DNA of 64,000 nucleotides from Minisyncoccia bacterium (GCA_049305795.1 JBAQPM010000006.1:38902-102901), one strand, 5' to 3'. Shown: positions 5,033 to 46,203, numbered from the stretch's first letter. The notes: generated by a model not told the origin, from the letters alone. Translations and numbers: made by a program.

Positions 5033-5107
5033 TGTAGTGCGTAAAAGAAAAGGGAATGCATTGCGGTGCGCGCCGGAAATATGTCCTGGTTTTGATATAC
5101 TGTCCTC

Positions 5108-5824
5108 ATGAACATACTTCTCCATAAAGCAGGAGAGCGGGGAGGTGGAAACCACGGCTGGCTCACGACGAAATACAGTTTTAGTTTTTCTGATTGGTAT
5201 GAACCCTCGCGTATGGGCTTTGGGGCACTTCGCGTACTGAATGATGATTCCATCGCACCTTCTTCTGGTTTTCCGCCACATAGCCACCGAGAGATGGAAA
5301 TTATTACCATTGTCACCAGTGGTGCAGTGACGCACGAAGACAGTATGGGAAACAAGGGCGAAGTGAAAAAAGGAGATGTGCAGGTAATGTCTGCGGGAAC
5401 GGGAGTAACCCACGCCGAACAAAATAATTCCACCACAGAGCCGCTCGCTCTTTTTCAACTATGGATTGAACCGAACGAAAAAGGCATCGTTCCGCGGTAT
5501 GACCAGCGTGCCTTTGGCTTTGAAAATCAGGGCCTCGGCATAACCACACTCGTATCGCCTTTTTCTGATACGGAGGGTCTTTCAATACACCAGGAGGCCT
5601 ATGTTTCCTATGCAAGTATTGATAAGAATAATCCTTTTACCTACACACTTCATGACGAGCATGCGGGAGTATATGTTTTTGTGATAGAGGGAAATGCGGA
5701 AATAGAAGGGCGCGAGCTTGGTGCGCGCGACGCTGTCGGTATTTCCGAAACGGACTCATTTGATATCTCCTCTCCCGATCAGGTAAAAGTTCTTCTCGTT
5801 GAAGTCCCTTTCGAGAGCGAATAA
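5108..5824 (+). CDS. pirin-family cupin protein
   Basis: A cupin HxH motif (FPPHSHREMEIITIV) and the pirin family architecture are present. Confidence 0.8.
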   Translation: MNILLHKAGERGGGNHGWLTTKYSFSFSDWYEPSRMGFGALRVLNDDSIAPSSGFPPHSHREMEIITIVTSGAVTHEDSMGNKGEVKKGDVQVMSAGTGVTHAEQNNSTTEPLALFQLWIEPNEKGIVPRYDQRAFGFENQGLGITTLVSPFSDTEGLSIHQEAYVSYASIDKNNPFTYTLHDEHAGVYVFVIEGNAEIEGRELGARDAVGISETDSFDISSPDQVKVLLVEVPFESE

Positions 5825-5842
5825 GGTAATTGCGGATATTCT

Positions 5843-7705: not shown

Positions 7706-10459
7706 ATGGAAGGACTTGAACGACCTCTTACAACTCCCGAAGAGGAGCTTGCCTATCTGCGCGCGCAGGTTGAAGCAAAAGAAAAGGAGCTTTTTGCACT
7801 TCGGGAAGTACAGCCACGCGAAGAAGTTGTTCGCGAGCGCATTGTGCATCACCGTAACATCGAAGGGGAGAAGGTCCTTGCATCCGAATACCGTCTTACC
7901 GAACCTGAGGTTCGTGTTCTCGCGCTTAACCTTGATCCGGATGATAACGACGAAACCATAGAGGAACTCCGAGGTATTTTAGAAGCGAAAGGTGTTAAGA
8001 ATGCACTTTCCGTTCTTGAGAAACTTAAAAATCCACACCTCGAAGACGACTTTCACCGCTTCCTTGTGCAATACATTGCAGGCGGCATGGAAGTTAAGGG
8101 TTGGTCGGAGAAAGAGCCAACGTGGAAAGCGCTTCACATGACGCTATATGAGGTTGCCCTTCCTGAACCGACCGGAAGTACGGGCGAAGATCGGGCAAAA
8201 ACCCTCAAAGAGCTTGTTTCTTCGATGGAACAATTTTATTCTGGCATGCTCTCGGTTAGTTCAGGGAGCGCGAGTGATGAACCCTCGTATTTTTCGATGG
8301 AACTCGCTGTTCCAGTGAACCGTCCCGAACTTCTTTTTTATGTTGCCGTGCCTAACCATAAGCGTGCCCTTTTTGAACAACAGCTTCTTGCGATATTTCC
8401 AGATGCGCATCTTGTTCCTCAGCCAAACGACTACAACGTTTTTGCAGAAGACGGTACTACGCAAGTTGCTGTTGCAACCCTTGCCACCAAAGCGGTCCTA
8501 CCGCTAAAAGATTATGCTGACTTTGATTACGACCCGCTAAACGCCTTACTAAATGCTTTCGGGAAAATTGAAGAAGCGGGTGAGGGTGCTGCACTGCAAA
8601 TCGTGATTGAGCCATCAGGAGAACGGTATATTTCGCACTATCGTAAAATCTTGCAAGCGCTGCGGCGTGGAGAAAATCAATCGAAAGCTTTTTCAACTCC
8701 GGAAGGACTCCTGGGCGAAGTCGCACGTGACTTTGGTTCAACATTGTTTGGCAAGTCACGGGATTATAAAGATGAACACGAAACCCGCACGCGCCAAACC
8801 GAAGCAAATAAGACAGATATTGAGCAAGTAGAGAAAAAGATTGCTGCACCCATTGTGCGTACCACCATCCGTCTTTTAGTTTCTTCGAGTAATCCATCTC
8901 GTGCTTCTCTCGGGCTTTCTGATCTTGAGGCTGCCTTTAATCAGTTTGGTAACACCCAGGGAAATCATTTAGTATTCGCGCATCCAACAGGGGAGCGGGC
9001 ACGTCAGGTTTTTAAAAGTTTCTCTTATCGCTTGCCTTCGCCAGACGTGCTTCCGCTTTCGCTTCGTGAACTCACCACGATGTATCATTTTCCTCCGCGG
9101 GGCATTGCATCCACGCCTCAACTCAAACAGTCCCGTTTTGCCGCAGCACCGGCACCAATGCATCTACCTAAGGCAGGACTCCAAATTGGTATAAACACCT
9201 ATCGCGGACAACAAACGGAGGTACGCATTGCGGACGAAGATCGTTTGCGACATCTGTATGTTATTGGTCAGACGGGTGCCGGAAAAACCGGACTCTTGAA
9301 GACAATGATTGCACAAGACATCGCTGAGGGACGCGGCGTTTGTTTTATTGACCCGCACGGCAACGACGTGCTTGATGTTCTTGCCATGGTTCCGCCTGAA
9401 CGTTACGAAGACGTTATTTATTTTGACCCTGCAGAAATTTCTCGGCCGTTCGGGCTTAACATGCTCGAATACGATGAAAACCGTCCCGAGCAAAAAACAT
9501 TTATCGTAAACGAGCTGTTGATGATTTTCCGTCGCTTATATGGCGATGTTCCGGAGTCCATGGGCCCAGCTTTTGAACAATATTTTAGAAACGCGACGCT
9601 TTTGGTGATGGAGTATCCTGAATCGGGTTCCACCATGCTCGATATCGCGCGCGTTCTCTCAAACGAGGAGTTTCGTCGTCTCAAATTGTCGAAAAGCAGA
9701 AATCCAATTGTGAATCAATTTTGGAATGAGATTGCCACAAAGGCGGGAGGAGATGCGGCCCTTGAAAATATCGTTCCCTATATCACCAACAAATTCGACG
9801 ATTTCACCGCAAACGATTTTATTCGTCCCATTGTTGGACAACAGCATTCTTCTTTTAATTTCCGTGAAGTCATTGATTCGAAAAAGATTCTCCTGGTGAA
9901 TCTTTCAAAGGGTCGGCTTGGTGAACGTAATGCAAACCTGCTCGGTCTTATTCTGGTCGGAAAACTTTTCATGGCCGCACTTTCGCGAGCGGATAATCCA
10001 CGCGCGGAATTTCCGCCCTTCTATTTGTATATTGATGAATTTCAGAACATCACGACTGACTCTATTCCAGGCATTCTCTCTGAAGCTCGAAAATACAAGC
10101 TGTCGCTCACCGTGGCACACCAATTTCTTGCCCAAATAGACGATAAAGTTCGCGAAGCGGTTTTTGGAAACGTGGGTTCCATGGCCGTGTTTCGTGTCGG
10201 AGAAGAAGATGCCGAATTTTTTGAGAAACAATTTGCTCCTGTCTTTTCTTCGCTCGATTTTGTGAATATTGAAAATAGAAATGCCTATGTCCGCATTCTT
10301 GCAAACGGAGTTCCGCAAAAGCCTTTCAACATCAAAACACTTGAGCTTCCCAAAGGAAATCAAAACCAAATAGATGATTTGCGTGAACTGTCATACCTCA
10401 CCTATGGTCGCGACCGTCAACAGGTAGAGGATTTCATCCGTGCGCGGTATCTGTCATAA
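7706..10459 (+). CDS. TraG/VirD4/TrwB-like coupling-type P-loop ATPase (FtsK-HerA superfamily) with a large novel N-terminal domain
   Basis: Motifs present: Walker A HLYVIGQTGAGKTGL, Walker B FYLYIDEFQN, and the TraG/VirD4 signature ARKYKLSLTVAHQFLAQI. The ~470-aa N-terminal region has no TM helix and matches no domain I recognise. Confidence 0.7.
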   Translation: MEGLERPLTTPEEELAYLRAQVEAKEKELFALREVQPREEVVRERIVHHRNIEGEKVLASEYRLTEPEVRVLALNLDPDDNDETIEELRGILEAKGVKNALSVLEKLKNPHLEDDFHRFLVQYIAGGMEVKGWSEKEPTWKALHMTLYEVALPEPTGSTGEDRAKTLKELVSSMEQFYSGMLSVSSGSASDEPSYFSMELAVPVNRPELLFYVAVPNHKRALFEQQLLAIFPDAHLVPQPNDYNVFAEDGTTQVAVATLATKAVLPLKDYADFDYDPLNALLNAFGKIEEAGEGAALQIVIEPSGERYISHYRKILQALRRGENQSKAFSTPEGLLGEVARDFGSTLFGKSRDYKDEHETRTRQTEANKTDIEQVEKKIAAPIVRTTIRLLVSSSNPSRASLGLSDLEAAFNQFGNTQGNHLVFAHPTGERARQVFKSFSYRLPSPDVLPLSLRELTTMYHFPPRGIASTPQLKQSRFAAAPAPMHLPKAGLQIGINTYRGQQTEVRIADEDRLRHLYVIGQTGAGKTGLLKTMIAQDIAEGRGVCFIDPHGNDVLDVLAMVPPERYEDVIYFDPAEISRPFGLNMLEYDENRPEQKTFIVNELLMIFRRLYGDVPESMGPAFEQYFRNATLLVMEYPESGSTMLDIARVLSNEEFRRLKLSKSRNPIVNQFWNEIATKAGGDAALENIVPYITNKFDDFTANDFIRPIVGQQHSSFNFREVIDSKKILLVNLSKGRLGERNANLLGLILVGKLFMAALSRADNPRAEFPPFYLYIDEFQNITTDSIPGILSEARKYKLSLTVAHQFLAQIDDKVREAVFGNVGSMAVFRVGEEDAEFFEKQFAPVFSSLDFVNIENRNAYVRILANGVPQKPFNIKTLELPKGNQNQIDDLRELSYLTYGRDRQQVEDFIRARYLS

Positions 10460-10482
10460 TACGGGTACATTCTCAATTTTAT

Positions 10483-13032
10483 ATGTCTGAAATTCCTCCG
10501 CGTATAGTTCCAAATCCCGAAAATGCGCTCGATCCAGGGCGTGCTGAAGCTTTTCAAAAAAGTGCAAAGACAAAAGAAAAAATAGTCTTGGATGCTTCAC
10601 CTGTTTCATCACAAGAGAGTGGGAATACCACGAAGGAGTATAAAGAACGCTTAAGTTGGCTTGTCTCACAATTTCAAAAACCAAAATTAAAGAAAGGCAA
10701 GGAAGCTCAGAGAAATCCAGAAAAAATAAAACCTCTTTCGCCCTTCGCCGAACAAGAATTTAAAAAGGCTCTTTTATCAACAAGCAACGCATCTGAGGTA
10801 ATTTTCTCTGAGCGAAAAAATGAAAATTTCTTAACGACCAAAAAGGGTAATAGTGAACGAATACTTTCAGACACGAAAGCATTTAGAGAAGCCCTTGCGG
10901 TTGCGCGAGCGGAAGATGCTGGGATTGAAATAAAAAAAGCCCGAGAAGATATGCTTGCTGCAGAGCAAGCATATCTTGAGGAGGAAAAGAAATTCCATAA
11001 AAAACATTCCCTATTGGGACGAAAAATGGCTTCACAGCTTGGAAAAATTGATCTTCAAAAGACTGAAGCAGAATATAACGAAAAAAGTCTCGCTTTTGAA
11101 AAGGTGCTTGAGGATCGTCTTAAGAATCGTTTGGCTATAAGAGATTATTCAAAAATCTCTATGTTTGCAGAGGAGCGTGATGAGGAGGGGAATGTGCTTC
11201 GTATTGCAACTAATCCCGAAGATTTTGCGAAGAAAGTGGCAGCACGGTATCGACGTATGATGATTTCGCGGGACATCATTGATCGAGGGGCGACGCAACT
11301 TGCGGAAACGAGAGCTGCAGCACTTGATGCAAAAGGAAAAAAGACATTTGATAAGGCTCTGGGATGGGTGGCGGGACTAAACAAAGGACTCGAAGATAAA
11401 CTTGGTAAAAGGGGTGCGCGTGCAGCTCGTATACTTACGGGCGCTGCCGTAGGTGCATTTGCAGGAAGTCTTACGGGAGGAGCTGGATTCCTTTGGGGAT
11501 TTGGGACACGCACGATGCGTGCAGTACTTGGAACGTCCTTTGGGGCGGCTGCTGGATATGGCGCAGGGAAAGCGTATATGGCTACGCTAGGTAAGGGTGC
11601 CGCAGAAAAGCTTGCTGCCGCGCGCGAAACTGCTGCTACCGATGCTAAGGGAATCAAGGCAAAACGTAAGGCATACGCGAGTGGTACAGAAGAAGCTATT
11701 GCAAGAAAACGGGCACTCGTTGAGTCGCTTACGGCAGTACTTACGGGTGCCGGAGTGTCCATGGAATCTGCCCGCCTGTTTGCAGAAAACGAAATTGTTA
11801 CACAGGCTCTTTCGGATGCTTCAGACTCTGTTAATCCGGTTTCTGCTCCTGAGGCTCTCGCGTCAGTACTGCCACCAAGCCCATTGTTGGCAGTAACGAG
11901 TGTTGAGGTGCGAACCGGGGAGGGTGCCATTGGTCTTTTCAAGCATCTCCAACAACAGCTTCAAGAAACGTATGCGAGTGTTGATCGGGCAACTCTTCCA
12001 CACTCCGTGCAGCATATGCTCACGCTTTCTCCTCAAGAACTCGCTAAAGAGTATGGTTTTTACAATCCATCGGCTGCTGCGGAAAGTGCCCTCATACCAA
12101 GAGGTGCAACCCTTGGCATTGATCCAGGAGGCAGTTTGGTTTACGAGGCGCCAACAGCTCACGGTTCACATCTTATGGTTCTTGAGCAGGGAAGCACGGC
12201 TTCGGTAACTCCTTTTCATGGGACCATGCAAGATACTGATGCGTCTTCGCGGCCAACCCAAGGACCGGTAACTCATTCTGAAACACGAGCTGAAGTTGAT
12301 GCACGAGAACGTGCTGAAACAGCGAGGCTCATGACTGAACAACATCTTCGAAATGTTGAAGCACAACGTGCGTTTGACGCACAGCGCACAGCGCCTCCTG
12401 TAGTTCCAGAAACAGCTCCTGTCCCCACAGCTCCTCCTACTATTGTCCCAGAGACTACTCGTGTTTCTCCCGTGGCTCCTGTTGAAGTTACTCAAGTTCC
12501 TCGTCCAGCTGCGTCTCTCAGTGATTCGGAGAAGTTCAGAATTTTGAGTGAGTGGTCGAAGCTACATAAGGGCGAGCCGTGGCCCCCTGGTGGCCTTGAT
12601 TACGACAAGGCTGCCGCTGAGCTTGCGAATCCGGAAGTATCCAGTTCTTCCGTTGAGTCTCAACCGCTCGCATCCCTCGGACAAGTTCCCGAGACTCCAG
12701 TGATTTCACAAGAGGGAATTGTTCAAGGTATTGATGGTCTTACGGTAAATACCGGAGAAGCCCATGTGTATCAAAACACAGACGATTCTTTCGTTGTTTT
12801 TGGAGGGACTGAGGAAACACGGTCTCGTCTTACATTTGAATTCTTACAAAAAAATCCAAGAGCAACTATCTTGGTGGAAAGCTATACGACGAATGACAAA
12901 GGTCTTACCATTCCATGGAAAATGGTAAATGGAGAGCCTGTACCAGGCGAGCCGATTCGAGATACGTTTCTAGGATTTGGAGGATTTGCAAGTGAGCCTG
13001 ATCCGACTACCTTTAAAAGCAAAATATTATAA
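10483..13032 (+). CDS. large hypothetical protein with a coiled-coil N-terminus, a Gly-zipper TM segment and a Pro/Thr-rich region
   Basis: The 849-aa protein has a Lys/Glu coiled-coil region. A glycine-zipper hydrophobic segment (ILTGAAVGAFAGSLTGGAGFLWGFG) and a PVVPETAPVPTAPPTIVPETT linker are present. Confidence 0.65.
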   Translation: MSEIPPRIVPNPENALDPGRAEAFQKSAKTKEKIVLDASPVSSQESGNTTKEYKERLSWLVSQFQKPKLKKGKEAQRNPEKIKPLSPFAEQEFKKALLSTSNASEVIFSERKNENFLTTKKGNSERILSDTKAFREALAVARAEDAGIEIKKAREDMLAAEQAYLEEEKKFHKKHSLLGRKMASQLGKIDLQKTEAEYNEKSLAFEKVLEDRLKNRLAIRDYSKISMFAEERDEEGNVLRIATNPEDFAKKVAARYRRMMISRDIIDRGATQLAETRAAALDAKGKKTFDKALGWVAGLNKGLEDKLGKRGARAARILTGAAVGAFAGSLTGGAGFLWGFGTRTMRAVLGTSFGAAAGYGAGKAYMATLGKGAAEKLAAARETAATDAKGIKAKRKAYASGTEEAIARKRALVESLTAVLTGAGVSMESARLFAENEIVTQALSDASDSVNPVSAPEALASVLPPSPLLAVTSVEVRTGEGAIGLFKHLQQQLQETYASVDRATLPHSVQHMLTLSPQELAKEYGFYNPSAAAESALIPRGATLGIDPGGSLVYEAPTAHGSHLMVLEQGSTASVTPFHGTMQDTDASSRPTQGPVTHSETRAEVDARERAETARLMTEQHLRNVEAQRAFDAQRTAPPVVPETAPVPTAPPTIVPETTRVSPVAPVEVTQVPRPAASLSDSEKFRILSEWSKLHKGEPWPPGGLDYDKAAAELANPEVSSSSVESQPLASLGQVPETPVISQEGIVQGIDGLTVNTGEAHVYQNTDDSFVVFGGTEETRSRLTFEFLQKNPRATILVESYTTNDKGLTIPWKMVNGEPVPGEPIRDTFLGFGGFASEPDPTTFKSKIL

Positions 13033-28791: not shown

Positions 28792-29250
28792 ATGGAAAGA
28801 AAACTTCTCACGCTCTGCATACTTCAGCACGAGGGGCGGTTCTTACTTGGAATGAAAAAGAAAGGAATGGGAACGGGGAACTGGAATGGTTTTGGGGGAA
28901 AGGTTGAAGAAGGGGAGGCTATTGAAGTTGCGGCAAAAAGGGAAATGCAAGAAGAGTCTGGAGTAATCGTTTTAGACTTAGAAGAAGTGGGCGTGCTTAT
29001 GTTTACGGCACCAACGCGGCCACCTCTTGAAATGCATATTTTCAAATCAACAAAATATACGGGGACGCCAATTGAAAGCGATGAAATGAAACCGGAATGG
29101 TTTTACAAAGACGAGTTACCTTTTGGCGGAATGTGGTCTTCCGACCTTTACTGGTGGCCGTTATTTTTGCGGGGCAAACGTTTTACTGGCGACTTTGTCT
29201 TTGATGAAAACGATAAGGTGATTTCTCACGAACTTACGGAAGTTATTTAG
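28792..29250 (+). CDS. NUDIX hydrolase (MutT-like)
   Basis: The Nudix box is GGKVEEGEAIEVAAKREMQEESGV. Confidence 0.85.
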   Translation: MERKLLTLCILQHEGRFLLGMKKKGMGTGNWNGFGGKVEEGEAIEVAAKREMQEESGVIVLDLEEVGVLMFTAPTRPPLEMHIFKSTKYTGTPIESDEMKPEWFYKDELPFGGMWSSDLYWWPLFLRGKRFTGDFVFDENDKVISHELTEVI

Positions 29251-31529: not shown

Positions 31530-31937
31530 ATGACCCAGTACGTAATCGAGGAAACTCTTCTTGAAAAAGCTTTGGGGGAGTTGATACAGCATCTCCGGCA
31601 CGATTTTCCGGATATTTCAGATGATGTGATTCAGGAAAAAGCTAGAGAAAGGTTTTCCCGAGCACTAAGTCTGGCTATAGAATATTACGAACGGTATGCG
31701 GCACCATACCCCAAAAACGTTGAGTCTCTTGCAGAAGCAAGGCAATTTAATGAGCTTTGCAAAAAATTGAAGTTGCCGAATCGGGAGGTGATAGGGATTC
31801 TTCGTGAATTCATCATAAAACGAATAGCGGCAGATCACCGAGCAGCACTCGTACAAATACTTGTAGTTAATGGGGGCCAAACTCGCACCACAGCAGACAA
31901 AATTATTAGAAAACATGTTCTTGCTGATAAGACATGA
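31530..31937 (+). CDS. hypothetical protein (135 aa)
   Basis: The RBS gggagg is 5 nt upstream. A strong terminator follows. Confidence 0.55.
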   Translation: MTQYVIEETLLEKALGELIQHLRHDFPDISDDVIQEKARERFSRALSLAIEYYERYAAPYPKNVESLAEARQFNELCKKLKLPNREVIGILREFIIKRIAADHRAALVQILVVNGGQTRTTADKIIRKHVLADKT

Positions 31938-31970
31938 AAGGGCGTCCTGGGAAGGACGCCCTTTCTCTTT
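31937..31970 (+). terminator. rho-independent terminator
   Basis: The hairpin is aagggcgtcc-tggg-aaggacgccctt followed by tctctttt. Confidence 0.7.
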
Positions 31971-32017
31971 TACCCACCAATCGCTTGACGCCCGCCAAAA
32001 TATGCTATGCTTTCCCA

Positions 32018-32185
32018 ATGACCGACGAAAACAAAGTAATTGGGTATTGTGTGAAGTGCAAAGAAAAGCGTGAAATGAAGGACGTAGAAAAGGTAGAAAT
32101 TAAACCAGGTCGCCCAGCAGCAAAAGGTAAGTGCACCGTTTGTGGCACCGGTATGTACAAGATCCTTCCTAAGGACCAAGCGTAA
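32018..32185 (+). CDS. small zinc-ribbon protein (55 aa)
   Basis: Cysteine pairs CVKC...CTVC are present. A TTGACG promoter-like hexamer lies at 31985. A terminator follows at 32198-32232. Confidence 0.45.
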   Translation: MTDENKVIGYCVKCKEKREMKDVEKVEIKPGRPAAKGKCTVCGTGMYKILPKDQA

Positions 32186-32232: not shown

Positions 32233-32322
32233 GTCGTTATGGGGACATCTGGTATCATTTGTCCATGGACAGGGCCCAGCATATGTCCCGCGCGGCTGCG
32301 CGGTCGTTCGTCTCGTAACCGT

Positions 32323-33069
32323 ATGCATTCGGGAGTTGAAGTGGTGCTTAAAGCAGAGGAACTCGGACACTTTTTCGGGCTACCCATCACCAACAGTCTC
32401 GTGATGTCATGGCTCGTCGTCGTCATACTCATTATTGCGGGAATAATGATTGGAAGAAGTGTAAAGCTAAAACCGGGGAAATTTGTGGCAGGACTCGAGT
32501 GGGCTTTTGAAGGTGCTTTTAACTACATTGCCAACACCCTTGGAAGCGAAGCGCTTGCGCGGAAATTCTTTCCGCTTCTCGCGACGGTTTTCCTTTTCAT
32601 TCTTGTTGGAAATGAACTTGCCTTCATTCCAGGCGTGGGATCAATCGGCATCATGGAAGGAAATATTTTCGTTCCAGCGCTTCGGGCACCTGCGGCAGAC
32701 CTCAATTTCACGCTCGCCCTTGCCATTATTGCGTTCTTTACGATTGAGGTTACGGGCATACTCACCATCGGCTTCTTGAAGTACGCCGGAAAATTCGTTA
32801 ACCTGAAGTCACCCATCGGTTTTGTGGTGGGTATCATTGAATTGGTTTCAAACCTGGGCCGTCTCATTTCCTTCTCATTCCGTCTCTTTGGGAACATTTT
32901 TGCCGGGGAAGTGATGATTCTGGTGGCAGGCTATTTCCTACCGTATTTCCTTCCGGTGCCGCTCATTGCTTTTGAGGTATTCGTGGGAATGATCCAGGCG
33001 CTCGTGTTTTCGATGCTCATTCTGTTTTTCATCAAGCTTGCTATCCTTGAGCCACACGAGAGCCACTAA
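32323..33069 (+). CDS. atpB: F0F1 ATP synthase subunit a
   Basis: The motif FRLFGNIFAGEV is present and the N-terminus is LKAEELGHFFGLPITNSL. The start is uncertain (ATG 32323 or GTG 32340). Confidence 0.85.
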   Translation: MHSGVEVVLKAEELGHFFGLPITNSLVMSWLVVVILIIAGIMIGRSVKLKPGKFVAGLEWAFEGAFNYIANTLGSEALARKFFPLLATVFLFILVGNELAFIPGVGSIGIMEGNIFVPALRAPAADLNFTLALAIIAFFTIEVTGILTIGFLKYAGKFVNLKSPIGFVVGIIELVSNLGRLISFSFRLFGNIFAGEVMILVAGYFLPYFLPVPLIAFEVFVGMIQALVFSMLILFFIKLAILEPHESH

Positions 33070-33097: not shown

Positions 33098-33370
<273 letters not shown>

Positions 33371-33414: not shown

Positions 33415-33861
33415 ATGGAACAACTTTTCGAGGCATTCGGTATTAATTGGAAATTGCTTCTCGCACAAGCGGTGAACTTTGGTGTACTTCTTGTTGCACT
33501 TCGCTATTTCCTCTACCGGCCAGTCATGGATGTTCTTGAAAAGCGCAGAATACTGGTTGCAAAGGGTGTTGAAGACGCGCAGGCAGCAACAGAAAAATTA
33601 GCGCAAGCTGACACGGAAGCGTCAGCACGTCTTTCGGTTGCAGAAACACAGGCGTCTGAAATTGTTGAAACTGCTCGACATTCTGCAACTGACGAAAAGA
33701 CCCGCATTGTAAAAGACGCCGAGCTTCGTGCAGCGCGTGTGGCGGAAGACGCTGAGCTTCGTGCAAAAGAGGTGGCAGCAAAGACGCTTCGTGAAAGCGA
33801 ACAAGAAATTTCCCGACTCGCCATTTTGGCAGCAGGGAAGGTGCTTGCTGAAAAGTCATGA
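33415..33861 (+). CDS. atpF: F0F1 ATP synthase subunit b
   Basis: A single N-terminal TM is followed by a long charged helix. Confidence 0.85.
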   Translation: MEQLFEAFGINWKLLLAQAVNFGVLLVALRYFLYRPVMDVLEKRRILVAKGVEDAQAATEKLAQADTEASARLSVAETQASEIVETARHSATDEKTRIVKDAELRAARVAEDAELRAKEVAAKTLRESEQEISRLAILAAGKVLAEKS

Positions 33862-34232
33862 TTAGCGCGCGCGTCTACGCCAAAGCACTCGCGCGTCTCT
33901 CTTTAAAAGACGCTGCGAACAAAAACGCTGTTCAGAATCTTGTAACGCACCTCAGAGGTGCTGGACGGATTAAACTTTTACCCGCCATTCTTTCTGAGCT
34001 TAAAAGTATCGAAGCGCGTGCTGCAAAACTTTCTCCTCGTGTTGAGGTAGCGCGCGAAGCCGATGTTGCTCTAAGTCTTGCGGCTGCTCGTAAAGAGGGT
34101 ATCGAAACCACAGAGGCTAGGGTAAACCCGAATCTCGTAAGGGGGTGGCGTGCGATGAATAAGGGAATGCTTGTCGACCGTTCGGCAAAACATTCACTCG
34201 TAGAACTTTATAGGAATATTACAACCCGATAG
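33858..34232 (+). CDS. atpH: F0F1 ATP synthase subunit delta (short, 124 aa)
   Basis: The operon position and an OSCP-like helical pattern support the call. The start overlaps the atpF stop. Confidence 0.65.
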
Positions 34233-34234
34233 GT

Positions 34235-35782
34235 ATGGAGAGCATTATCAAACGAATCGAAGAAGAAATCACGGCATTTGCGCCGACATTTGCCACAGAA
34301 GAAGTGGGTACCGTCCGCACGGCGGGTGACGGTATTACGGAAATTGACGGTCTCACGAATGCCGTCATGACCGAAATGGTGCTTTTCGATCCGACATTTG
34401 ATCGAACGCTTGAAGAAGCATTGAAAGATCCGCAGCCGCTTTACGGTCTTGTGCTCAACCTTGAAGAAGATGGTGTGCGTGCCGTGGTCCTTGGAGATGC
34501 GTCCAAGGTTTACGAAGGCATGCTCGTTCGTCGTCTCGGTCGTTTGCTCTCCATTCCTGTGGGTGAAGGTTTCATTGGGCGTGTGGTAAACCCGCTTGGT
34601 GAACCCGTTGATGGGAAAGGTCCTATCGTTTCCAAAGAAGTACGACCAATCGAACGCGAAGCATACGGCGTTATTGATCGCGCTCCAGTGAATGTGCCGC
34701 TTCACACGGGCATCAAAGCAATCGATGCCATGATTCCGATTGGTCGCGGACAGCGAGAGCTCATCATTGGAGACCGCGGAACAGGAAAAACAGCCGTTGC
34801 TATCGATACTATTTTAAACCAGCAGAACGAGCCGGAAGATAAGCGTCCCATTTGTATTTACGTTGCCATAGGCCAAAAGGAATCTAAGACCGCAAAACTG
34901 GTCGCCGAACTTGCCGAAAAGGGAGCCATGGAATATTCCATCGTTGTCACTGCCCCTGCCTCAAGCCCTGCCGCGCTTCAATACCTCGCACCTTTTGCGG
35001 GTGCAACCCTTGGTGAATATTTCATGGAACAGGGCAAGGACGCGCTGGTGGTATACGACGATCTTTCAAAACAAGCAGTCGCCTATCGCCAAATGTCTTT
35101 GCTCCTTCGCCGTCCTCCTGGTCGCGAAGCATATCCGGGCGACGTGTTTTATCTGCACTCTCGCCTTCTTGAGCGTGCTGCAAAACTCTCGAAAGAAAAG
35201 GGAGGGGGTTCACTCACAGCTCTTCCCATTATCGAAACGCAAGATAATGACGTATCAGCGTACATTCCAACCAACGTGATTTCAATCACGGACGGTCAAA
35301 TCTTCCTTGAGTCGAATCTTTTTAACCAGGGCCAGCGTCCGGCTATCAACGTCGGTATTTCGGTTTCGCGTGTGGGCTCTTCCGCGCAAACGAAGGCTAT
35401 GAAAAAAGTGTCAGGCAAAATCAAGCTTGAGCTCGCACAGTTCCGCGAACTTGAAGCCTTCATGCAATTTTCTTCTGATCTTGATGCCGACACCAAGGCG
35501 CGCATTGATTCTGGACGTCGTATGACGGAAGTTCTCAAGCAAAACCGCGGTGAGCCTTTGGCATTTGAAATTGAATCCACGATTATCTTTGCAGCAACCA
35601 ATGGTTACTTTGACCGATTCTCTCCAGAGGAAATTGGTGGTGTTGAAAAGAAACTTCGCGACTTTCTTGCTCGTGAAGGAAAAGCAGAGCTTGAAGCAAT
35701 CAAAACATCTCGTGAGATAAGCGAGGAAACCGAAAAGACACTTCGTCCAAAACTTGAGCGTTTTGCCGAGCACGCCGCATAA
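34235..35782 (+). CDS. atpA: F0F1 ATP synthase subunit alpha
   Basis: A Walker A motif GDRGTGKT and full-length alpha hallmarks are present. Confidence 0.95.
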
Positions 35783-35787
35783 ACATC

Positions 35788-36318
35788 ATGCACATCAAGG
35801 TCGGTACAAAAAACAAAGCAAAGGTCGGAGCCGTAGAAGAAATTCTCGCTGACTACCCGCACCTCAAAGATGCGGTGGTTGAAGGCGTTGAAGTCTCTTC
35901 CGGTGTTGCCGACCAGCCTAAGTCGCTTGAAGAAACTATTGCTGGCGCTGAAAATCGCGCGAAGGCAGCTTTTGTTGATTGTGCCTATGCTATTGGTATT
36001 GAGTCAGGCCTTATGGCAGTGCCTCGAACGAAAAGTGGTTTTATGGATGTGTGTGTTTGTGCCATTTATGACGGTTCAGAACTTCACCTAGGACTTTCTT
36101 CTGGTTGGGAATTTCCCGATCCAACCATCATAACGAAACATATGATTGCCGAAGGCTTGAATCTTACAGAGGCAGCTAACAAAGCGGGTCTCACAAATAA
36201 TCCTTCTATTGGTTCTGGTGAAGGAATCATCAACACTCTTACAAAAGGTCGTATGGATCGAAAAGAGTATACGAAACAAGCACTTCTCACAGCTCTCATT
36301 CATATCGATCCTCTGTAA
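35788..36318 (+). CDS. inosine/xanthosine triphosphatase, YjjX/DUF84 (Maf-Ham1 superfamily), embedded in the atp operon
   Basis: The translation MHIKVGTKNKAKVGAVEEIL...VSSGVADQPKSLEETIAGAENRA...AIGIESGL aligns with the E. coli YjjX motifs (SGVPEQP, EET..GA.NR, IEAG). Confidence 0.7.
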   Translation: MHIKVGTKNKAKVGAVEEILADYPHLKDAVVEGVEVSSGVADQPKSLEETIAGAENRAKAAFVDCAYAIGIESGLMAVPRTKSGFMDVCVCAIYDGSELHLGLSSGWEFPDPTIITKHMIAEGLNLTEAANKAGLTNNPSIGSGEGIINTLTKGRMDRKEYTKQALLTALIHIDPL

Positions 36319-36323
36319 ACGCT

Positions 36324-37231
36324 ATGGCACTCAAAGATGTAAAAGCAAAGATTCAGGCAACGCTTCGCACGCACAAAGTAACGCGGGCGATGGAAGCGGT
36401 CTCTGCCGTAAAAATGCGCAAGACCCAAGTGAGTGCACTTGGCGGCCGTGCATATGCGCGTGCCGCGCTTTCCATCCTTGCCCGCCTTTCGGGAACGGCG
36501 GATTTCAAAAGCCATTCGCTTGCAAGTATTCGTCCGGTTAAAAATATTGCCGTGGTGCTTATCACCAGTGATAAAGGTCTTGCAGGATCCCTAAACAGTA
36601 GTGTGATAAAGGCAGCGGTCGAAATAATTGCAGACCGGCCAAAGGATTCTGTGCGTATATACGCATATGGCCGAAAGGGTGAAGAATATTTCGCTCGTCG
36701 TGGGTACACCATTGAAAAATCCTTCGAAAATAAATTAGACGACATACCAACTGCGGCAGTGGAAGCACTTTCCGCAGAACTGTCCGCTGGATTTTCGGAA
36801 GGTCTTTTCGATGAAGCAGTTGCCGTGTATAGCAATTTCAAATCCACCTTTGAACAATTGCCAACAGCACGAACCTTTTTGCCGGTTTCAGTTTCGAGTA
36901 TCGAACAGCTCGTTGCAGATATTGTTCCCATTCGCGGTAAATGGAGTGATGAAATTTCCACGAAAGCCCCGACGAGCTACACTATCGAACCTTCGCCGGA
37001 AGTGGTGCTTGATACGCTCGTGCCACGCCTCGTTTCCGTGTCGCTCTACCATATGCTTCTTGAATCAAAAGCCTCGGAGCATTCGGCACGCATGGTGGCG
37101 ATGAAAAATGCAAGCGACAAATCGAAAGAACTGGCGCAAGATCTTACCCGAACATTCAACAAGATTCGTCAGGCCGCAATCACTCGCGAAGTGTCGGAAA
37201 TTGTGAGTGGCCGGGAAGCATTATCAGCTTA

Positions 37232-37232
<1 letters not shown>
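36324..37232 (+). CDS. atpG: F0F1 ATP synthase subunit gamma
   Basis: The N-terminus is MALKDVKAKIQATLRTHKVTRAMEAVSAVKMRK and the C-terminal helix is conserved. Confidence 0.9.
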
Positions 37233-38707
<1,475 letters not shown>

Positions 38708-38710
38708 CGC

Positions 38711-38956
38711 ATGGCAAAGACCTTCCACGCGACCATTGCAAAAGTAGGTGAGAATCTCTTTAACGGGGAAGTCATTTCGCTCACCCTTCCGGGCGCTAGC
38801 GGCGTGCTTACGGTGCTTGCCAATCACGCGCCGCTCGTTTGCGAACTCAAAGCCGGACAGATAGAAATAAAGGCTACAGACGGAACTGCGCAAAGCGTTC
38901 TTGTTGAGCGGGGAGTTTTGGAAGTGTCGAGCAATCAGGCGACGGTGCTCTTATAA
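38711..38956 (+). CDS. atpC: F0F1 ATP synthase subunit epsilon, N-terminal beta-sandwich only (81 aa)
   Basis: The operon position and epsilon N-domain pattern support the call. The C-terminal helical hairpin is absent. Confidence 0.75.
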   Translation: MAKTFHATIAKVGENLFNGEVISLTLPGASGVLTVLANHAPLVCELKAGQIEIKATDGTAQSVLVERGVLEVSSNQATVLL

Positions 38957-38983: not shown

Positions 38984-39214
38984 ATGTCGATAAAAAGTTT
39001 TCTCACCTCACAGGTACTCAAATATAAAATGAAGGATGTTCCGGAAGAAAAACGGAACCAAATCATCGGTTTTGTCGAAAAAGATCCTGAACTTTTCAAA
39101 AAAATAGGTGCAGAAATCGAGCGCAGGAAAAAAGGAGGCGAGAGCGAAATGAAGGCAACGATGGACGTGATGAAAAAATATCGTGCCGAACTTGCGGCAC
39201 TCACGCAAAAATAA
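38984..39214 (+). CDS. hypothetical protein (76 aa)
   Basis: The frame is coding-like, with no family recognised. Confidence 0.45.
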   Translation: MSIKSFLTSQVLKYKMKDVPEEKRNQIIGFVEKDPELFKKIGAEIERRKKGGESEMKATMDVMKKYRAELAALTQK

Positions 39215-39217
39215 CCT

Positions 39218-39781
39218 ATGCTTACGTCGCTCGCGACGGTTTTGGTGATGCTTCACGCCTTTGGCAGCGCCCTTGGCGCCGGCGGCGTAACGTTTGCCGA
39301 AATTTTCTACACTAAGGCAACAGCAGATGGTGTCGTTGATACGCGCGAACGTGAGTGGTTTTCAACAACCTTTTGGGCTCTTCGCTGGGGCATGACGATG
39401 GTGCTTTTCTCCGGACTCGCGCTCGCGGTTTTGCAGGTTGCGATGATGCAATCATCAGAAATACTCGCGTACGAATCTCTGTGGAAGCAAAATACACTCG
39501 CCCTTATCATTGCCGTGTCAGCATGGCTGCTTGTCATAAAGAGACTCTCTTTTAAAACGACGTCGGCAATAATTTTCACCGCGTGGTGGATGATGTTTTT
39601 TCTTGATGTGTGGAAAGGAATTTCTTTTAGTTATTTCTCTTTTATTTTCTCGTATGTGATTGCGGTGTTCTTTTCACTTTTTGTGTGGGAATACGCACGT
39701 GCACTGGCGCATCGAAAAGCACTGAAAAGAATTATTCACAGAAAAGAACACGAATTTAAAGCGCATTCTGGGCATTCATAG
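39218..39781 (+). CDS. hypothetical polytopic membrane protein (187 aa)
   Basis: It has 4-5 hydrophobic helices. Confidence 0.5.
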   Translation: MLTSLATVLVMLHAFGSALGAGGVTFAEIFYTKATADGVVDTREREWFSTTFWALRWGMTMVLFSGLALAVLQVAMMQSSEILAYESLWKQNTLALIIAVSAWLLVIKRLSFKTTSAIIFTAWWMMFFLDVWKGISFSYFSFIFSYVIAVFFSLFVWEYARALAHRKALKRIIHRKEHEFKAHSGHS

Positions 39782-39795
39782 GCTACACTTCACCT

Positions 39796-40371
39796 ATGCG
39801 TATTTTTCTTTTGCTCGGGCATCCTGATTCAAGTCCCGAACCACTTTCACGTCATGTTGCTGATGCGTATGAACGTGCGGCAAAACAAGCGGGACACGAG
39901 GTTCGTCGCATGAACATAAGCGACATGGCATTTGATCCAGTGTTACATCATGGATACCGAGAGCGCATGAATCTCGAACCAGACCTTCTTAAAGTTCAGG
40001 AAAACATCACCTGGTGCGAACATTTCGTATTGGCCTATCCAAACTGGTGGGGAGGTATGCCCGCACTCCTCAAAGGCATGTGGGACCGCATGTTCTTGCC
40101 ACGCTTCGCTTTTTCCATGCACAAAAATAGACTCGGATGGGACCGTCTCCTTAAAGGCCGCACAGCCCGAGTGTTTATCATGTGTGGAAATCCGCCCATT
40201 CTTGATTACATTGCCTTTGGTAATTTTGCCGCTTCCATCGGCTGGTCCATTTTGCGTTTTGCCGGATTCAAAACACGCATTACCTCTTTTGGTCCCTCCG
40301 AAAATCCTTCAGAGTCAAGACACGCCCGCTTCATTAGAAAAGTAGAATGTTTTGCTCAAAAAGGAAAATAG
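39796..40371 (+). CDS. flavodoxin-like-fold NAD(P)H-dependent oxidoreductase (Flavodoxin_2/NQO-like)
   Basis: The N-terminus MRIFLLLGHPD...SRH and the WGGMPALLKGMWDR pattern match the family. Confidence 0.7.
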   Translation: MRIFLLLGHPDSSPEPLSRHVADAYERAAKQAGHEVRRMNISDMAFDPVLHHGYRERMNLEPDLLKVQENITWCEHFVLAYPNWWGGMPALLKGMWDRMFLPRFAFSMHKNRLGWDRLLKGRTARVFIMCGNPPILDYIAFGNFAASIGWSILRFAGFKTRITSFGPSENPSESRHARFIRKVECFAQKGK

Positions 40372-40992: not shown

Positions 40993-41006
40993 AATTCCTG
41001 TCTCCC

Positions 41007-41050
41007 CCGTCAGAAGCACGATGCTTCTGACGGGGGTTTCTTTTTTATAT
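41007..41050 (+). terminator. rho-independent terminator
   Basis: The hairpin is cccccgtcagaagc-acgat-gcttctgacggggg followed by tttctttttt. Confidence 0.75.
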
Positions 41051-42335: not shown

Positions 42336-43292
42336 ATGGAAAACACACCCGTTGCAAAAGCAGAACCGAAAGATTTTTTTCTCTGGGCCGGTGCGCTTAT
42401 AGCACTCTATGCCGCTATCACATCATTCATCACTCTCCTTTTTGAATACATAAATTATTCGTTTCCAGATTCTCTTGCCGGATGGAGCGACCCGTATAGC
42501 GGCAGCATCCGCTTTTCAATGGCAGCACTTATTGTGCTCGCGCCAACTGTGCTCATCCTCATGCGTCTCATTCGAAACAGCATCGCCGCACATCCAGAAA
42601 AGGCAACTGTGTGGGTGCGAAGGTGGGCACTCATGCTCACGCTTTTTGCCGCCGGAGCAACCATTGTTATTGATCTCATTACGCTCCTTTACACATTTCT
42701 CGGGGGAGAAATATCGACCCGATTTTCCCTTAAGGTTGCCGTCATCTTGCTTGTTGCTGTGCTCGTATTCCTTCATTTTCTTGCCGACATAAAAGGCTAT
42801 TGGATACGGGAACGAGCCAAGGCAAACCTGGTTGGAATTGCAGTGTTTGTACTCGCACTTCTTTCGGTGGTTGCTGGTTTCTTTATCGTTGGTAGTCCAA
42901 ACGATATTCGCATGGTTCGTTACGATGAACGCAAGGTTTCTGATCTTCAGGCGATTCAATGGGAGCTCGTTAATTTTTGGCAACAAAAGCAGACTCTTCC
43001 AAAAACTCTCGATGAACTAAAAGATCCACTCAGCTCGTTCATGGTCCCTATGGATATCCAGACAGACGCGCCGTATGTATATGAAGTTGTTGATGCGCGT
43101 TCGTTCAAGCTCTGCGCCACGTTCAATCGCGAAACGCAGGATACCAAAGGACGCGGCGAGTATCCGGCCTATTACGATACATCCCTTGGTTCGGGAGGTA
43201 CCTTTGAAAATTGGAAACATGGGGAAGGGGTAACGTGCTTCACGCGCACCATTGATCCGCAGCGTTATCCTCCTCTTACCAAGGGCATATAA
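42336..43292 (+). CDS. DUF5671-like membrane protein
   Basis: A 6-TM N-terminal half is followed by a soluble C-terminal domain. The architecture is common in Patescibacteria. Confidence 0.5.
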   Translation: MENTPVAKAEPKDFFLWAGALIALYAAITSFITLLFEYINYSFPDSLAGWSDPYSGSIRFSMAALIVLAPTVLILMRLIRNSIAAHPEKATVWVRRWALMLTLFAAGATIVIDLITLLYTFLGGEISTRFSLKVAVILLVAVLVFLHFLADIKGYWIRERAKANLVGIAVFVLALLSVVAGFFIVGSPNDIRMVRYDERKVSDLQAIQWELVNFWQQKQTLPKTLDELKDPLSSFMVPMDIQTDAPYVYEVVDARSFKLCATFNRETQDTKGRGEYPAYYDTSLGSGGTFENWKHGEGVTCFTRTIDPQRYPPLTKGI

Positions 43293-43305
43293 GGGGCCAG
43301 GTTCC

Positions 43306-46203
43306 ATGCGGGGATACGACCATCGGGAGATAGAAAAACGTACCCAGGAAAAATGGGCGGCTTCGGAGCTGTACGTTACCGATCTCTCAGATAAAGAAAA
43401 AGAACCGTACTATCTTTTAACGGAATTTCCGTATCCATCAGGCGACCTTCACATTGGTCACTGGTATGCCTTTGCTATACCTGATATCTTTGCACGCTAT
43501 CTGCGCATGAAAGGGAAAAATGTACTTTTCCCTGTTGGTTTTGATGCCTTCGGTCTTCCTGCTGAAAACGCTGCTTTCAAAAATGGTGCGGATCCGAAAG
43601 AGTGGACGTATGCAAACATGGACCGCATGCGCACCCAGCTTAAAAGCATGGGAACCTCTTTTGATTGGTCTAAAGAAGTTGTTACTGCAGAACCCTCTTA
43701 CTACAAATGGACCCAGTGGCTTTTTGCGAAGCTCTTTGAGCATGGTCTTGCGACGCGAAAAGAAGCTCCAGTGAAATGGTGTCCGAAAGACCAGACGGTG
43801 CTTGCAAACGAACAGGTGATTGATGGGAAGTGTGAACGTTGTGGCACTGAGGTTGAAGAAAAAAGACTTACGCAGTGGTTTATGAAAATCACCGAGTATG
43901 CTGATCGGCTGCTCTCTGATTTAGACGCACTTCCGTGGCGCGAAGACATTAAGGACGCGCAGCGTACGTGGATAGGAAAGTCCGAAGGGGCCAAAATCAA
44001 GTTTAGAGTCAAGGGTCAAGAGTTACCGGAAGCTCATGACTCGCAACTTTCAACTCATGACTTCATTGAAGTGTTTACGACGCGTCCTGAAACTATTTTT
44101 GGTGCAACTTATCTCGTAATTGCACCGGAACACCCACTCGTGGCCCAGCTTGCAGGGAGCGACTTGCCGGGAGCAGTGAAAAATGTAGAAGAGGTACAGA
44201 AATATATTGAAGCAACAAAGAAAAAGACCGAGCGTGAACGATCAGAAAATAAGGAAAAAACAGGAATCAAACTTGAAGGTATGGTTGCGATTAATCCCGC
44301 AACGAAAGAAGAAATCCCAGTGTATGTTGGAGAGTATGTACTCGGTTCATACGGCACGGGCGCTCTCATGGCCGTGCCGGCGCACGATGAGCGAGATTTC
44401 GAATTTGCAAAGAAACATACCATTCCTGTGCGTCATGTAGTTATTCCTCGATTCATTGACGAGAGAAACCCACATGTTCCGGGTAAGGAATTGGTCCCTC
44501 GAAACATCATCATTGGCATTGTGTACGATCCAAAGACGGGAAAATATTTGGGCCTCAAATGGAAGAAACAATCGTGGACGACATTTATTACAGGCGGCAT
44601 CGATGGCGATGAGGATCCCGTGGACGCGGCGCGCCGAGAGATACACGAAGAGACAGGATACAAAAATTTGAAATATATCCGCACACTTGGTGGACCGACA
44701 CAATCGGAATTTTTTGCCGCGCATAAAGACGTAAATCGCATTACCCGAGCGACAAGCATTCTTTTTGAACTTGAAGACGAAGAACGAGACGAGGTGGGGA
44801 TTGAAGAGTTAGAACAACATGAAGTTGCTTGGCTCGACGAGTCTGATGTTACACGAGAAAAAATGCAGCATGCAGAACTCGACATTATTCGATTCCGACT
44901 CTTAAACGAGGAAGCCGATTACTATACGGAACCCGGGATACTCACCGATTCAGGGATTTTTTCAGGTCGTGAAAGCGAGGAGGCAAAATGGGACATTGTC
45001 GAGGCGGTCGGTGGGGAACGCACCACGCAATACCGCATGCGAGACTGGCTTGTGTCGAGACAGCGTTACTGGGGGTGTCCTATTCCAGTTGTCTACGACC
45101 CAGAAGGCAGGGCACATTTGGTGCCTGCAGAGCATCTTCCCTGGCTTCTTCCGACGGACGTGGATTTCACGCCGACAGGAAAATCCCCACTCGCTTCTTC
45201 AAAAGAACTTCACGAGCGCGTTACGAAAATTTTTGGTGAAGGATGGACACCAGAGTATGACACACTCGATACCTTCGTAGATTCCTCCTGGTATTTCTTG
45301 CGTTATCTCGACGCGAAAGACTCGCATGATTTTTCTGATCAGGGGTTGATGAAACAGTGGCTTCCCATAAACCGCTACTCAGGTGGAAGTGAACACACCA
45401 CGATGCATCTTTTGTATGCACGCTTCTTCCACAAAGCACTGTACGATTTGGCACTTGTCCCAACTCCAGAGCCTTTCAATGAACGATTCAATCGTGGACT
45501 CATTATGGGAACTGACGGACAAAAAATGAGCAAGCGATGGGGAAATGTGGTAAATCCCGACGAAATGGTGGAGCGTTATGGCGCGGATGCGGTGCGGGTC
45601 TACCTTGCTTTCATTGGGCCTTATAACGAACCAGGCCACTACCCTTGGAATCTTGAAGGGGTTTCTTCCATGCGGAAGTTTTTGGAGCGTATTGCAGCAC
45701 TTTCTGAAAACCTTTCGGACGACAGTGCTACGGAAAATATATTACGCGCCTTTGCAAAAACCCAAACGAAGTTGGATGCGGATATCGAACGATTCAAACT
45801 CAACACTGCCGTTTCTGCGCTTATGGTGCTCGTGCGCGACCTTGAAGCTCTTTCTAATGTGCCTAAAAGCGCATGCCAAGACCTTCTTCGTTTTGTTGCT
45901 CCTTTCGCACCACATCTTGCAGAACATCTATGGGAACAGACAGGAGGAGGGGGGAGTGTCCACATGGCACCTTGGCCAACGTTTGACCCTTCACTTTTGA
46001 TTGAAGATACTGTTTCGGTGGTTGTGCAGGTAAATGGAAAACGACGTGCAAATATTTCTGTTTCTCCAGATGCTGACGAAGCAGTGGTTGTAAAAGAGGC
46101 TCGTGTGCTCCCTTCTGTGGAGACGGCACTCTCTGGAAAAGAGCCAATTCGGGTGATCTATGTGCCCGGGAAAATACTTAACCTGGTGACAAAGCAGGCT
46201 TAA
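43306..46203 (+). CDS. leuS: leucyl-tRNA synthetase carrying an inserted NUDIX hydrolase domain
   Basis: Class I motifs HIGH (HIGHWY) and KMSKR are present. The CP1 editing region runs TTRPETIFGATYLVIAPEH...GTGALMAVPAHDERDFEF. Before RMRDWLVSRQRYWG lies a ~125-aa insert (nt ~44485-44870) with a perfect Nudix box GGIDGDEDPVDAARREIHEETGY. Confidence 0.9.
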   Translation: MRGYDHREIEKRTQEKWAASELYVTDLSDKEKEPYYLLTEFPYPSGDLHIGHWYAFAIPDIFARYLRMKGKNVLFPVGFDAFGLPAENAAFKNGADPKEWTYANMDRMRTQLKSMGTSFDWSKEVVTAEPSYYKWTQWLFAKLFEHGLATRKEAPVKWCPKDQTVLANEQVIDGKCERCGTEVEEKRLTQWFMKITEYADRLLSDLDALPWREDIKDAQRTWIGKSEGAKIKFRVKGQELPEAHDSQLSTHDFIEVFTTRPETIFGATYLVIAPEHPLVAQLAGSDLPGAVKNVEEVQKYIEATKKKTERERSENKEKTGIKLEGMVAINPATKEEIPVYVGEYVLGSYGTGALMAVPAHDERDFEFAKKHTIPVRHVVIPRFIDERNPHVPGKELVPRNIIIGIVYDPKTGKYLGLKWKKQSWTTFITGGIDGDEDPVDAARREIHEETGYKNLKYIRTLGGPTQSEFFAAHKDVNRITRATSILFELEDEERDEVGIEELEQHEVAWLDESDVTREKMQHAELDIIRFRLLNEEADYYTEPGILTDSGIFSGRESEEAKWDIVEAVGGERTTQYRMRDWLVSRQRYWGCPIPVVYDPEGRAHLVPAEHLPWLLPTDVDFTPTGKSPLASSKELHERVTKIFGEGWTPEYDTLDTFVDSSWYFLRYLDAKDSHDFSDQGLMKQWLPINRYSGGSEHTTMHLLYARFFHKALYDLALVPTPEPFNERFNRGLIMGTDGQKMSKRWGNVVNPDEMVERYGADAVRVYLAFIGPYNEPGHYPWNLEGVSSMRKFLERIAALSENLSDDSATENILRAFAKTQTKLDADIERFKLNTAVSALMVLVRDLEALSNVPKSACQDLLRFVAPFAPHLAEHLWEQTGGGGSVHMAPWPTFDPSLLIEDTVSVVVQVNGKRRANISVSPDADEAVVVKEARVLPSVETALSGKEPIRVIYVPGKILNLVTKQA

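Follow-up and report, generated by a model that had tools for sequence, protein, structure and literature searches.

The DNA analysed here, referred to as the window, is a stretch of 64,000 nucleotides from a Minisyncoccia (Patescibacteria/CPR) MAG, and it carries on its + strand an F-type ATP synthase operon of the order atpB-E-F-H-A-[x]-G-D-C, in which x is an open reading frame (ORF) of 176 amino acids (35788-36318, ATG to TAA), hereafter yjjX. The structural genes, all on the + strand, are atpB for F0 subunit a (32239-33069; PF00119, 127.6 bits), atpE for the 75-aa F0 subunit c (33143-33370; PF00137, 61 bits), atpF for the 148-aa F0 subunit b (33415-33861; PF00430, 58.6 bits), atpH for a delta subunit of 124 aa (33858-34232), whose start overlaps the atpF stop by 4 nt, atpA for the 515-aa F1 alpha subunit (34235-35782; PF00006, 274 bits, with PF00306 and PF02874), atpG for the 302-aa F1 gamma subunit, opening with the ATG at 36324 (36324-37232; PF00231, 267.5 bits), atpD for the 457-aa F1 beta subunit (37334-38707; PF00006, 250 bits) and atpC for an epsilon subunit of 81 aa (38711-38956; PF02823, 63.7 bits). 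On direct reading, yjjX is set apart from the atpA stop by the 5-nt spacer ACATC (35783-35787) and from the atpG start by the 5-nt spacer ACGCT (36319-36323), so that the position of a YjjX-like gene between atpA and atpG and the two 5-nt gaps, as described in an earlier note on this DNA, are exact.

Pfam assignment of every flanking gene places all eight structural genes, bar the extra ORF, in the same order as in the canonical atp(I)BEFHAGDC operon of E. coli, from which the window differs by the non-subunit gene between atpA and atpG, by truncated delta and epsilon subunits, by the lack of an atpI gene, none being seen in the operon, and by the lack of Shine-Dalgarno motifs. The description of the operon in the earlier note as canonical and tightly packed therefore holds for gene order and has to be qualified for the two shortened subunits and for the gap of 101 nt between atpG and atpD. 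The delta protein reaches only 19.8 bits against the OSCP profile, under the cutoff of 22.3, and aligns with profile positions 62-171 only; it is the positional equivalent of the delta subunit of a related operon (L033) that matches OSCP at E=8.6e-14. The epsilon protein comprises the N-terminal beta-sandwich only, and the C-terminal inhibitory helical hairpin does not fit in the ORF. Relatives likewise have a shortened delta and epsilon, irrespective of whether they carry yjjX, the epsilon being about 81-82 aa long in those without it. As regards atpB, the ATG at 32239 adds 28 residues that are missing in relatives, whose AtpB starts at the motif 'M..G.EVVLKAE', equivalent to Met29 of the window ORF, and translation probably starts at the ATG at 32323 instead.

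Directly upstream of atpB lies a DUF5679 gene of 83 aa (31934-32185, +), at the 5' end of which a strong bidirectional terminator-like hairpin with a 13-bp stem (31936-31965) forms the join to a preceding 135-aa ORF, and about 3 kb upstream of the operon there is a free-standing MutT-like Nudix gene (28792-29250, +; PF00293, 49.9 bits) of the type that frequently adjoins yjjX in other Patescibacteria. Downstream of atpC, a 76-aa ORF, a 187-aa ORF and a flavodoxin-like/FMN-reductase gene follow at 38984-40371 (+) with gaps of 27, 3 and 14 nt; the first two are without a Pfam match, and homologs of the 76-aa ORF trail atpC in most relatives of the clade, followed by ychF. These three genes may belong to the atp transcription unit, a possible end of which is marked by a strong hairpin resembling an intrinsic terminator, the first to be met past the operon, with a 15-bp stem including 10 GC pairs and a subsequent T-run (41004-41036, +).

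With respect to expression, a consensus scan revealed no promoter-like or terminator-like site at either yjjX junction, promoter-like sites overall numbered 8 as compared to 10.1 by shuffle expectation, and the strong hairpins nearest to yjjX are those at 31936-31965 and 41004-41036; a promoter or terminator proper to yjjX was rejected on these grounds. GC content and skew show nothing unusual across the gene, which also led to the rejection of a recent horizontal insertion, and a whole-window Rfam scan at gathering thresholds returned three tRNAs only. Because the gaps are of 5 nt, no promoter or terminator signal is present and no GC anomaly is seen, there is a strong case that yjjX is co-transcribed with the F1 genes, in agreement with the earlier note, and for gaps of this size this appears to be the only reasonable reading. 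A Shine-Dalgarno-like motif precedes none of the 15 genes inspected between 32000 and 42200 (+), which suggests that initiation in the source genome may be SD-independent. Most gaps in the atp operon range from -4 to 5 nt, and the tight spacing of yjjX is kept in most relatives, with 3-8 nt upstream and 3-5 nt downstream. Translational coupling, which the earlier note had taken as given, is better described as plausible: with such gaps and no Shine-Dalgarno motif, yjjX could be coupled to atpA by termination-reinitiation.

The ORF belongs to a large and well-defined protein family. A protein database search returned 1519 homologs at E<=1e-5, and the profile search for PF01931 (NTPase_I-T/DUF84) that the earlier note had proposed yielded a match of 129.7 bits against a cutoff of 25 (E=1.2e-37), spanning profile positions 1-160 of 162, so that a chance ORF is excluded. 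An assembly artefact is likewise excluded, because two Logan assemblies made independently (L001 and L002) both encode this very protein in unchanged surroundings, and it is also listed from an NCBI MAG record titled 'Minisyncoccia bacterium'. The TIGR00258 inosine/xanthosine triphosphatase equivalog model was narrowly passed (119.6 bits, cutoff 117.1), while the narrower equivalogs PRK03941 (144.5 versus 199) and PRK05074 (68.8 versus 175) were missed; of these models, the enterobacterial PRK05074 is more distant from the protein than are PRK03941 and TIGR00258, both of archaeal type. Among PDB sequences, only E. coli YjjX and V. cholerae VC0702 were matched, at E about 1e-6. An AlphaFold2 model built with 20 homologs (pLDDT 94.6, pTM 0.89) was found by Foldseek to resemble E. 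coli YjjX most closely (1u14/1u5w, TM 0.82-0.87), with individual TM scores of 0.84/0.87 for 1u14 and 0.79-0.86 for 1u5w, followed by VC0702 (1zwy/1zno, TM 0.74-0.80), the E values of these matches reaching down to 4e-14.

The window protein shares with E. coli YjjX (1U5W, 1U14) and V. cholerae VC0702 (1ZNO, 1ZWY) the PF01931 family, the fold and the motifs T/S-x-N-x-x-K, [D/E]-Q-P, N-R and E-x-G, and is only 24-26% identical to them. Residue conservation was taken as identity in at least 95% of 81 Patescibacteria orthologs or invariance in the 20-sequence alignment, and in the former alignment 48 residues reach this level; N9, K12, Q43-P44, E49, N56-R57 and E72-G74 are retained and align with YjjX/VC0702, as is the C-terminal cluster G146/T152/G154/R158 that is common to both. 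A paper on E. coli evolution describes Glu38 of E. coli YjjX as a metal-binding site, and the corresponding column holds Ser37 in the window protein, is variable within the clade and is Pro, likewise non-acidic, in VC0702; this difference is a caveat to the match in metal-site residues and is not read as a sign of inactivity. No match to PF01725, the RdgB/Ham1 family, was obtained at E<=0.01, and Ham1/Maf proteins show a remote fold likeness only, with TM about 0.4 (0.41 for 1b78 and 0.36 for 2j4e by Foldseek); KomBC-type (Ham1-like, dITP-binding) helical complexes were considered and rejected, the fold match being weak (TM about 0.4) and without other support. Judged by family, fold and retained family motifs, the gene product is a genuine DUF84/YjjX-type protein and a putative ITP/XTP phosphatase, with a substrate specificity predicted from family membership. 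The functional name is already known, as NCBI/JGI pipelines call this protein and its relatives 'inosine/xanthosine triphosphatase'.

In order to place the arrangement in a comparative context, the genomic surroundings of YjjX were surveyed with one genome per GTDB species, which gave 80 loci of about 10 kb each, nearly all of them from Patescibacteria-type MAGs by record title, in which atp genes were located by tblastn with the atp proteins of the window. The order atpA-yjjX-atpG is found in eight of the 80 (L017, L021, L022, L028, L029, L047, L053 and L076), and there are two variants, atpG-yjjX-Nudix-atpD in L025 and atpF-yjjX-atpH-atpA in L033; in the remaining 70 loci no atp gene occurs within 6 kb of yjjX. 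The synteny comparison that the earlier note had suggested consequently reveals an insert that is shared by this minority of species loci, and with the same annotated role rather than a different one. One of the eight, L053, has an extra 118-aa ORF without a significant Pfam match between atpA and yjjX (5559-5915; atpA-x-yjjX-atpG), and in L033 atpG seems to be split into two ORFs (4341-4727 and 4943-5410), which could reflect a frameshift, a pseudogene or an assembly error. The commonest neighbour of yjjX is secA, which lies within 3.5 kb in 38 of the 80 loci, and Nudix genes are found near yjjX in 13 and 7 loci. The secA-linked proteins of Patescibacteria are orthologous to the window protein, with 57-70% identity and the same invariant residues, and differ in location, being placed near secA, often with Nudix or secDF-like neighbours, and outside atp operons.

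Neighbour-joining of the YjjX proteins groups the copies embedded in atp operons, that of L025 among them, in a single clade and places L033 far off among secA-linked copies, a topology that points to one ancestral capture and one independent capture. The arrangement is old, because it is common to operons whose AtpG is only about 50% identical to that of the window (L047 and L025). When the ten atp-embedded copies were compared with the 70 others, no distinguishing residue was found at a threshold of at least 80% in embedded and at most 20% in other copies, and mean YjjX identity amounts to 0.63 inside either group, compared with 0.59 across the two.

A reverse survey was also performed, in which an alignment of AtpG from eight operons was used to collect 80 metagenomic Patescibacteria atp loci (L083-L162) without regard to yjjX. 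The gene was present in none of these 80 loci and in none of the 65 evaluable atpA/atpG junctions. The five nearest relatives (L083-L087) are as close to the window as are the yjjX-bearing operons, with atpA 70-81% and atpG 64-70% identical to those of the window, and in all five atpA abuts atpG. In the AtpG tree, also obtained by neighbour-joining only, seven operons with yjjX interleave with five without it, so that five of the 12 closest operons lack the gene, and the flanks (DUF1003, orf76, orf187 or the flavodoxin-like gene, and ychF) are collinear whether or not yjjX is present. With a monophyletic YjjX clade and an interleaved AtpG tree, the simplest history is that yjjX was gained once and then lost or relocated four times or more. 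As far as these genes can tell, the placement of yjjX in the atp operon is dispensable and has been repeatedly lost. The earlier note had also proposed that the insertion directly links purine-pool sanitation to ATP synthase expression; what stands of this proposal is a probable co-expression in this lineage, and it is a dispensable link, since the closest collinear operons are without the insert and the orthologs are placed most often near secA.

It was further observed that yjjX is one of several kinds of genes inserted into these operons. In the yjjX-blind set, inserts of at least 250 nt occur at 11 of 65 atpA/atpG, 13 of 61 atpG/atpD and two of 33 atpD/atpC junctions, and insertions inside the operon seem to be unusually frequent in this phylum. 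Ham1/RdgB ITPases (PF01725, 176-195 bits) are located inside the operons of L097, L100 and L130, and both of those scanned against NCBIfam (L097 and L130) passed TIGR00042; MutT-like Nudix hydrolases are found in the operons of L097 (two copies), L100, L103 and also L025, and a YfbR-like HD 5'-deoxynucleotidase in that of L103. Other inserts at these junctions encode a PemK/MazF toxin, an ORF6N protein, 23S-rRNA-IVP proteins (in three operons), coiled-coil ORFs and ORFs without a Pfam match, examples of such unrelated ORFs being L123 4499-4885 and 6019-6378, L131 5956-6318 and 7789-8181, and L134 1072-1674. The comparison of L025 with L097 is particularly informative: the two operons share 74-78% DNA identity (about 77%) over atpH-atpA, atpG and Nudix-atpD-atpC, and the slot after atpG has nothing in common, being filled by YjjX in L025 and by Nudix plus Ham1 in L097. 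The slot thus shows an in-place, non-orthologous exchange between two ITPase families. Ham1/RdgB/ITPA proteins (PF01725, TIGR00042) have the same role as YjjX in the removal of ITP, XTP and dITP, share with it a distant ITPase-like fold and, in L097, L100 and L130, the same atp operon slot, and differ from it in belonging to another family, with no detectable sequence match. Ham1 enzymes release pyrophosphate and leave a monophosphate, whereas YjjX releases phosphate and leaves a diphosphate.

Taken together, the reading that we favour, and regard as probable, is that yjjX encodes a passenger enzyme whose co-expression within the atp operon is modestly favoured. According to this proposal, the gene product would be an ordinary DUF84/YjjX phosphatase, predicted to be catalytically competent and not to be a part of ATP synthase, which would rid the nucleotide pool of non-canonical purine NTPs, namely ITP, XTP and probably dITP. 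Its gene would correspond, as an orthologue, to one that is present as a single copy at other sites in most Patescibacteria, with secA as the commonest neighbour, and would have entered the atpA/atpG junction when an ancestor of a single Paceibacteria/Minisyncoccia group captured it there. Having no promoter of its own, yjjX would be carried on the atp mRNA and probably translated by termination-reinitiation after atpA, and by borrowing a constitutive housekeeping promoter in this manner its level would track that of ATP synthase, while the enzyme would act on the soluble nucleotide pool and not on the synthase itself. The placement is probably non-random, as sister lineages put a Ham1/RdgB ITPase, a MutT-like Nudix hydrolase or a YfbR-like HD protein in the same operon.

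The explanation that comes next, possible yet on balance unlikely, is that the insertion is neutral, with atpA/atpG and atpG/atpD junctions that tolerate any small gene and an ITPase that arrived there by chance and without adaptive meaning. The frequency of inserts at these two junctions in the yjjX-blind sample is in keeping with it, as is the selfish or uncharacterised nature of many of them, namely the PemK, ORF6N, 23S_rRNA_IVP and coiled-coil ORFs, and close relatives lost yjjX itself on four or more occasions while nothing else changed. On the other hand, when house-cleaning ORFs were searched for with HMMs built from these sequences, eight were found inside operons, where the four families amount to about a quarter of the inserted ORFs, versus one among about 265 flanking ORFs. 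This enrichment gives a Fisher p=1.3e-7 at the ORF level and p=8.6e-5 when counted as about 4 events in 20, the operons being related and the independent events few; besides the YjjX clades, just four related operons enter the statistic, and two of the four in-operon Nudix ORFs were added from insert identification after a greedy ORF filter had dropped them. The replacement between YjjX and Ham1 in the same slot of operons that are about 77% DNA-identical, and the second entry of YjjX into the atp operon at another junction (L033), also speak against chance alone. Because four house-cleaning families recur, because YjjX and Ham1 were swapped and because a second capture took place, the association does not appear to be purely accidental, and because losses are frequent and selfish genes occupy the same junctions, the advantage is likely to be small and the junctions intrinsically permissive. 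The absence of yjjX from all 65 evaluable junctions and its at least four losses similarly indicate that any benefit of the placement must be small, and count against the favoured reading, as do the PemK, ORF6N, 23S-rRNA-IVP and uncharacterised ORFs at the same junctions, which suggest that the junctions are simply permissive.

More ambitious functional links between the enzyme and ATP synthase are less easily reconciled with this distribution. It may be envisaged, as an improbable extension of the pattern, that the ATP synthase of purine-salvage-dependent Patescibacteria is functionally tied to the removal of non-canonical purine NTPs: the rotary enzyme, its F1 poorly selective between purine bases, would either make ITP/XTP or be perturbed by them, and selection would time and again bring an ITPase at hand, of the DUF84 or the Ham1 family and often accompanied by a MutT-like Nudix hydrolase, into the atp operon, where it would be expressed in stoichiometric proportion and might associate with F1. 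The purine specificity of F1 is broad, as established biochemistry has it, and YjjX-type enzymes (EC 3.6.1.73) yield IDP, which F1Fo could re-phosphorylate. A direct coupling, whereby a poorly base-selective F1Fo either converts IDP/XDP into ITP/XTP or is disturbed by these nucleotides and the hydrolase is co-expressed for this reason and possibly F1-associated, may draw on the recurrence of two ITPase families (DUF84 and Ham1) in the operon with in-situ replacement, and on captures at three junctions counted as independent. It is nonetheless rather improbable, considering that the insert is missing in most related operons, that the embedded copies are without specialised residues or extra domains, that the production of IDP, which F1Fo could turn back into ITP, would be a poor design for sanitation, and that Nudix and HD partners suit a general cleaning of the pool rather than an F1-specific role. 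Also on the side of direct coupling is an evolution study of E. coli, in which yjjX mutations arose in each of the four lineages that had evolved with an electron-transport chain of 4 H+/e-, an independent hint that YjjX activity matters for energy metabolism. Finally, a moonlighting role of the DUF84 protein as an accessory or inhibitory part that would offset the truncated epsilon (81 aa) and delta (124 aa), to which the subunit-like spacing of the gene between F1 subunit genes might point, is highly improbable, given that relatives without the insert also have short epsilon and delta subunits, so that truncation is uncorrelated with the insert, that catalytic-family residues are fully conserved with no clade-specific changes and that orthologues of the same type lie at secA in genomes sampled elsewhere, and a genuine ATP synthase subunit was rejected in view of the patchy distribution (0 of 65 junctions, and five of the 12 closest operons without the gene) and the absence of sequence specialisation.

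Returning to the favoured reading of a passenger enzyme with modestly favoured co-expression, it is the comparative pattern more than the single gene that is of interest. E. coli YjjX and V. cholerae VC0702 are encoded in a different genomic context, and yjjX of E. coli is not known to lie in the atp operon. In the open-access literature searched, no description was found of a DUF84, YjjX, XTPase, Ham1 or Nudix gene within an atp operon, in CPR or elsewhere, and the ProAD paper makes no mention of inserted atp-operon genes. The novelty put forward in the earlier note is accordingly upheld in so far as the arrangement is absent from model bacteria and undescribed in the literature searched, and is reduced by the presence of the insert in relatives. 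What is new here is an F-type atp operon with embedded nucleotide house-cleaning genes: taken singly, yjjX is an unusually placed gene for a routine house-cleaning enzyme, while the value of the observation resides in the pattern by which, in ultra-small, salvage-dependent bacteria, the most conserved energy operon repeatedly gains enzymes that purge damaged or non-canonical nucleotides. If this pattern is selected, it would disclose an unrecognised dependency between nucleotide-pool quality and the expression or function of ATP synthase in minimal cells; if it is neutral, the atp junctions of this phylum would be unusually permissive, which bears on operon-based annotation and on promoter sharing in tiny genomes.

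Two further features of the window deserve mention. The leucyl-tRNA synthetase (LeuRS) gene at 43252-46203 (+), a 983-aa ORF for which the database protein P0121 has 965 aa, carries a NUDIX domain after its editing domain (residues 438-542; PF00293, 46.2 bits). In the literature searched, no description of a NUDIX-bearing LeuRS was found; PF00293 is present in all 120 of the best LeuRS homologs (63-68% identity, Paceibacterota/Parcubacteria), a few of which have additional alpha/beta-hydrolase or HAD domains. By its domain match, this is another candidate house-cleaning-type module embedded in an essential gene. The second feature is a pair of genes at 7706-13032 (+), the first for a protein of 917 aa that weakly matches TraG/VirD4- and HerA-like ATPases and the next for one of 849 aa without a Pfam match; together they may represent a secretion- or conjugation-like module.
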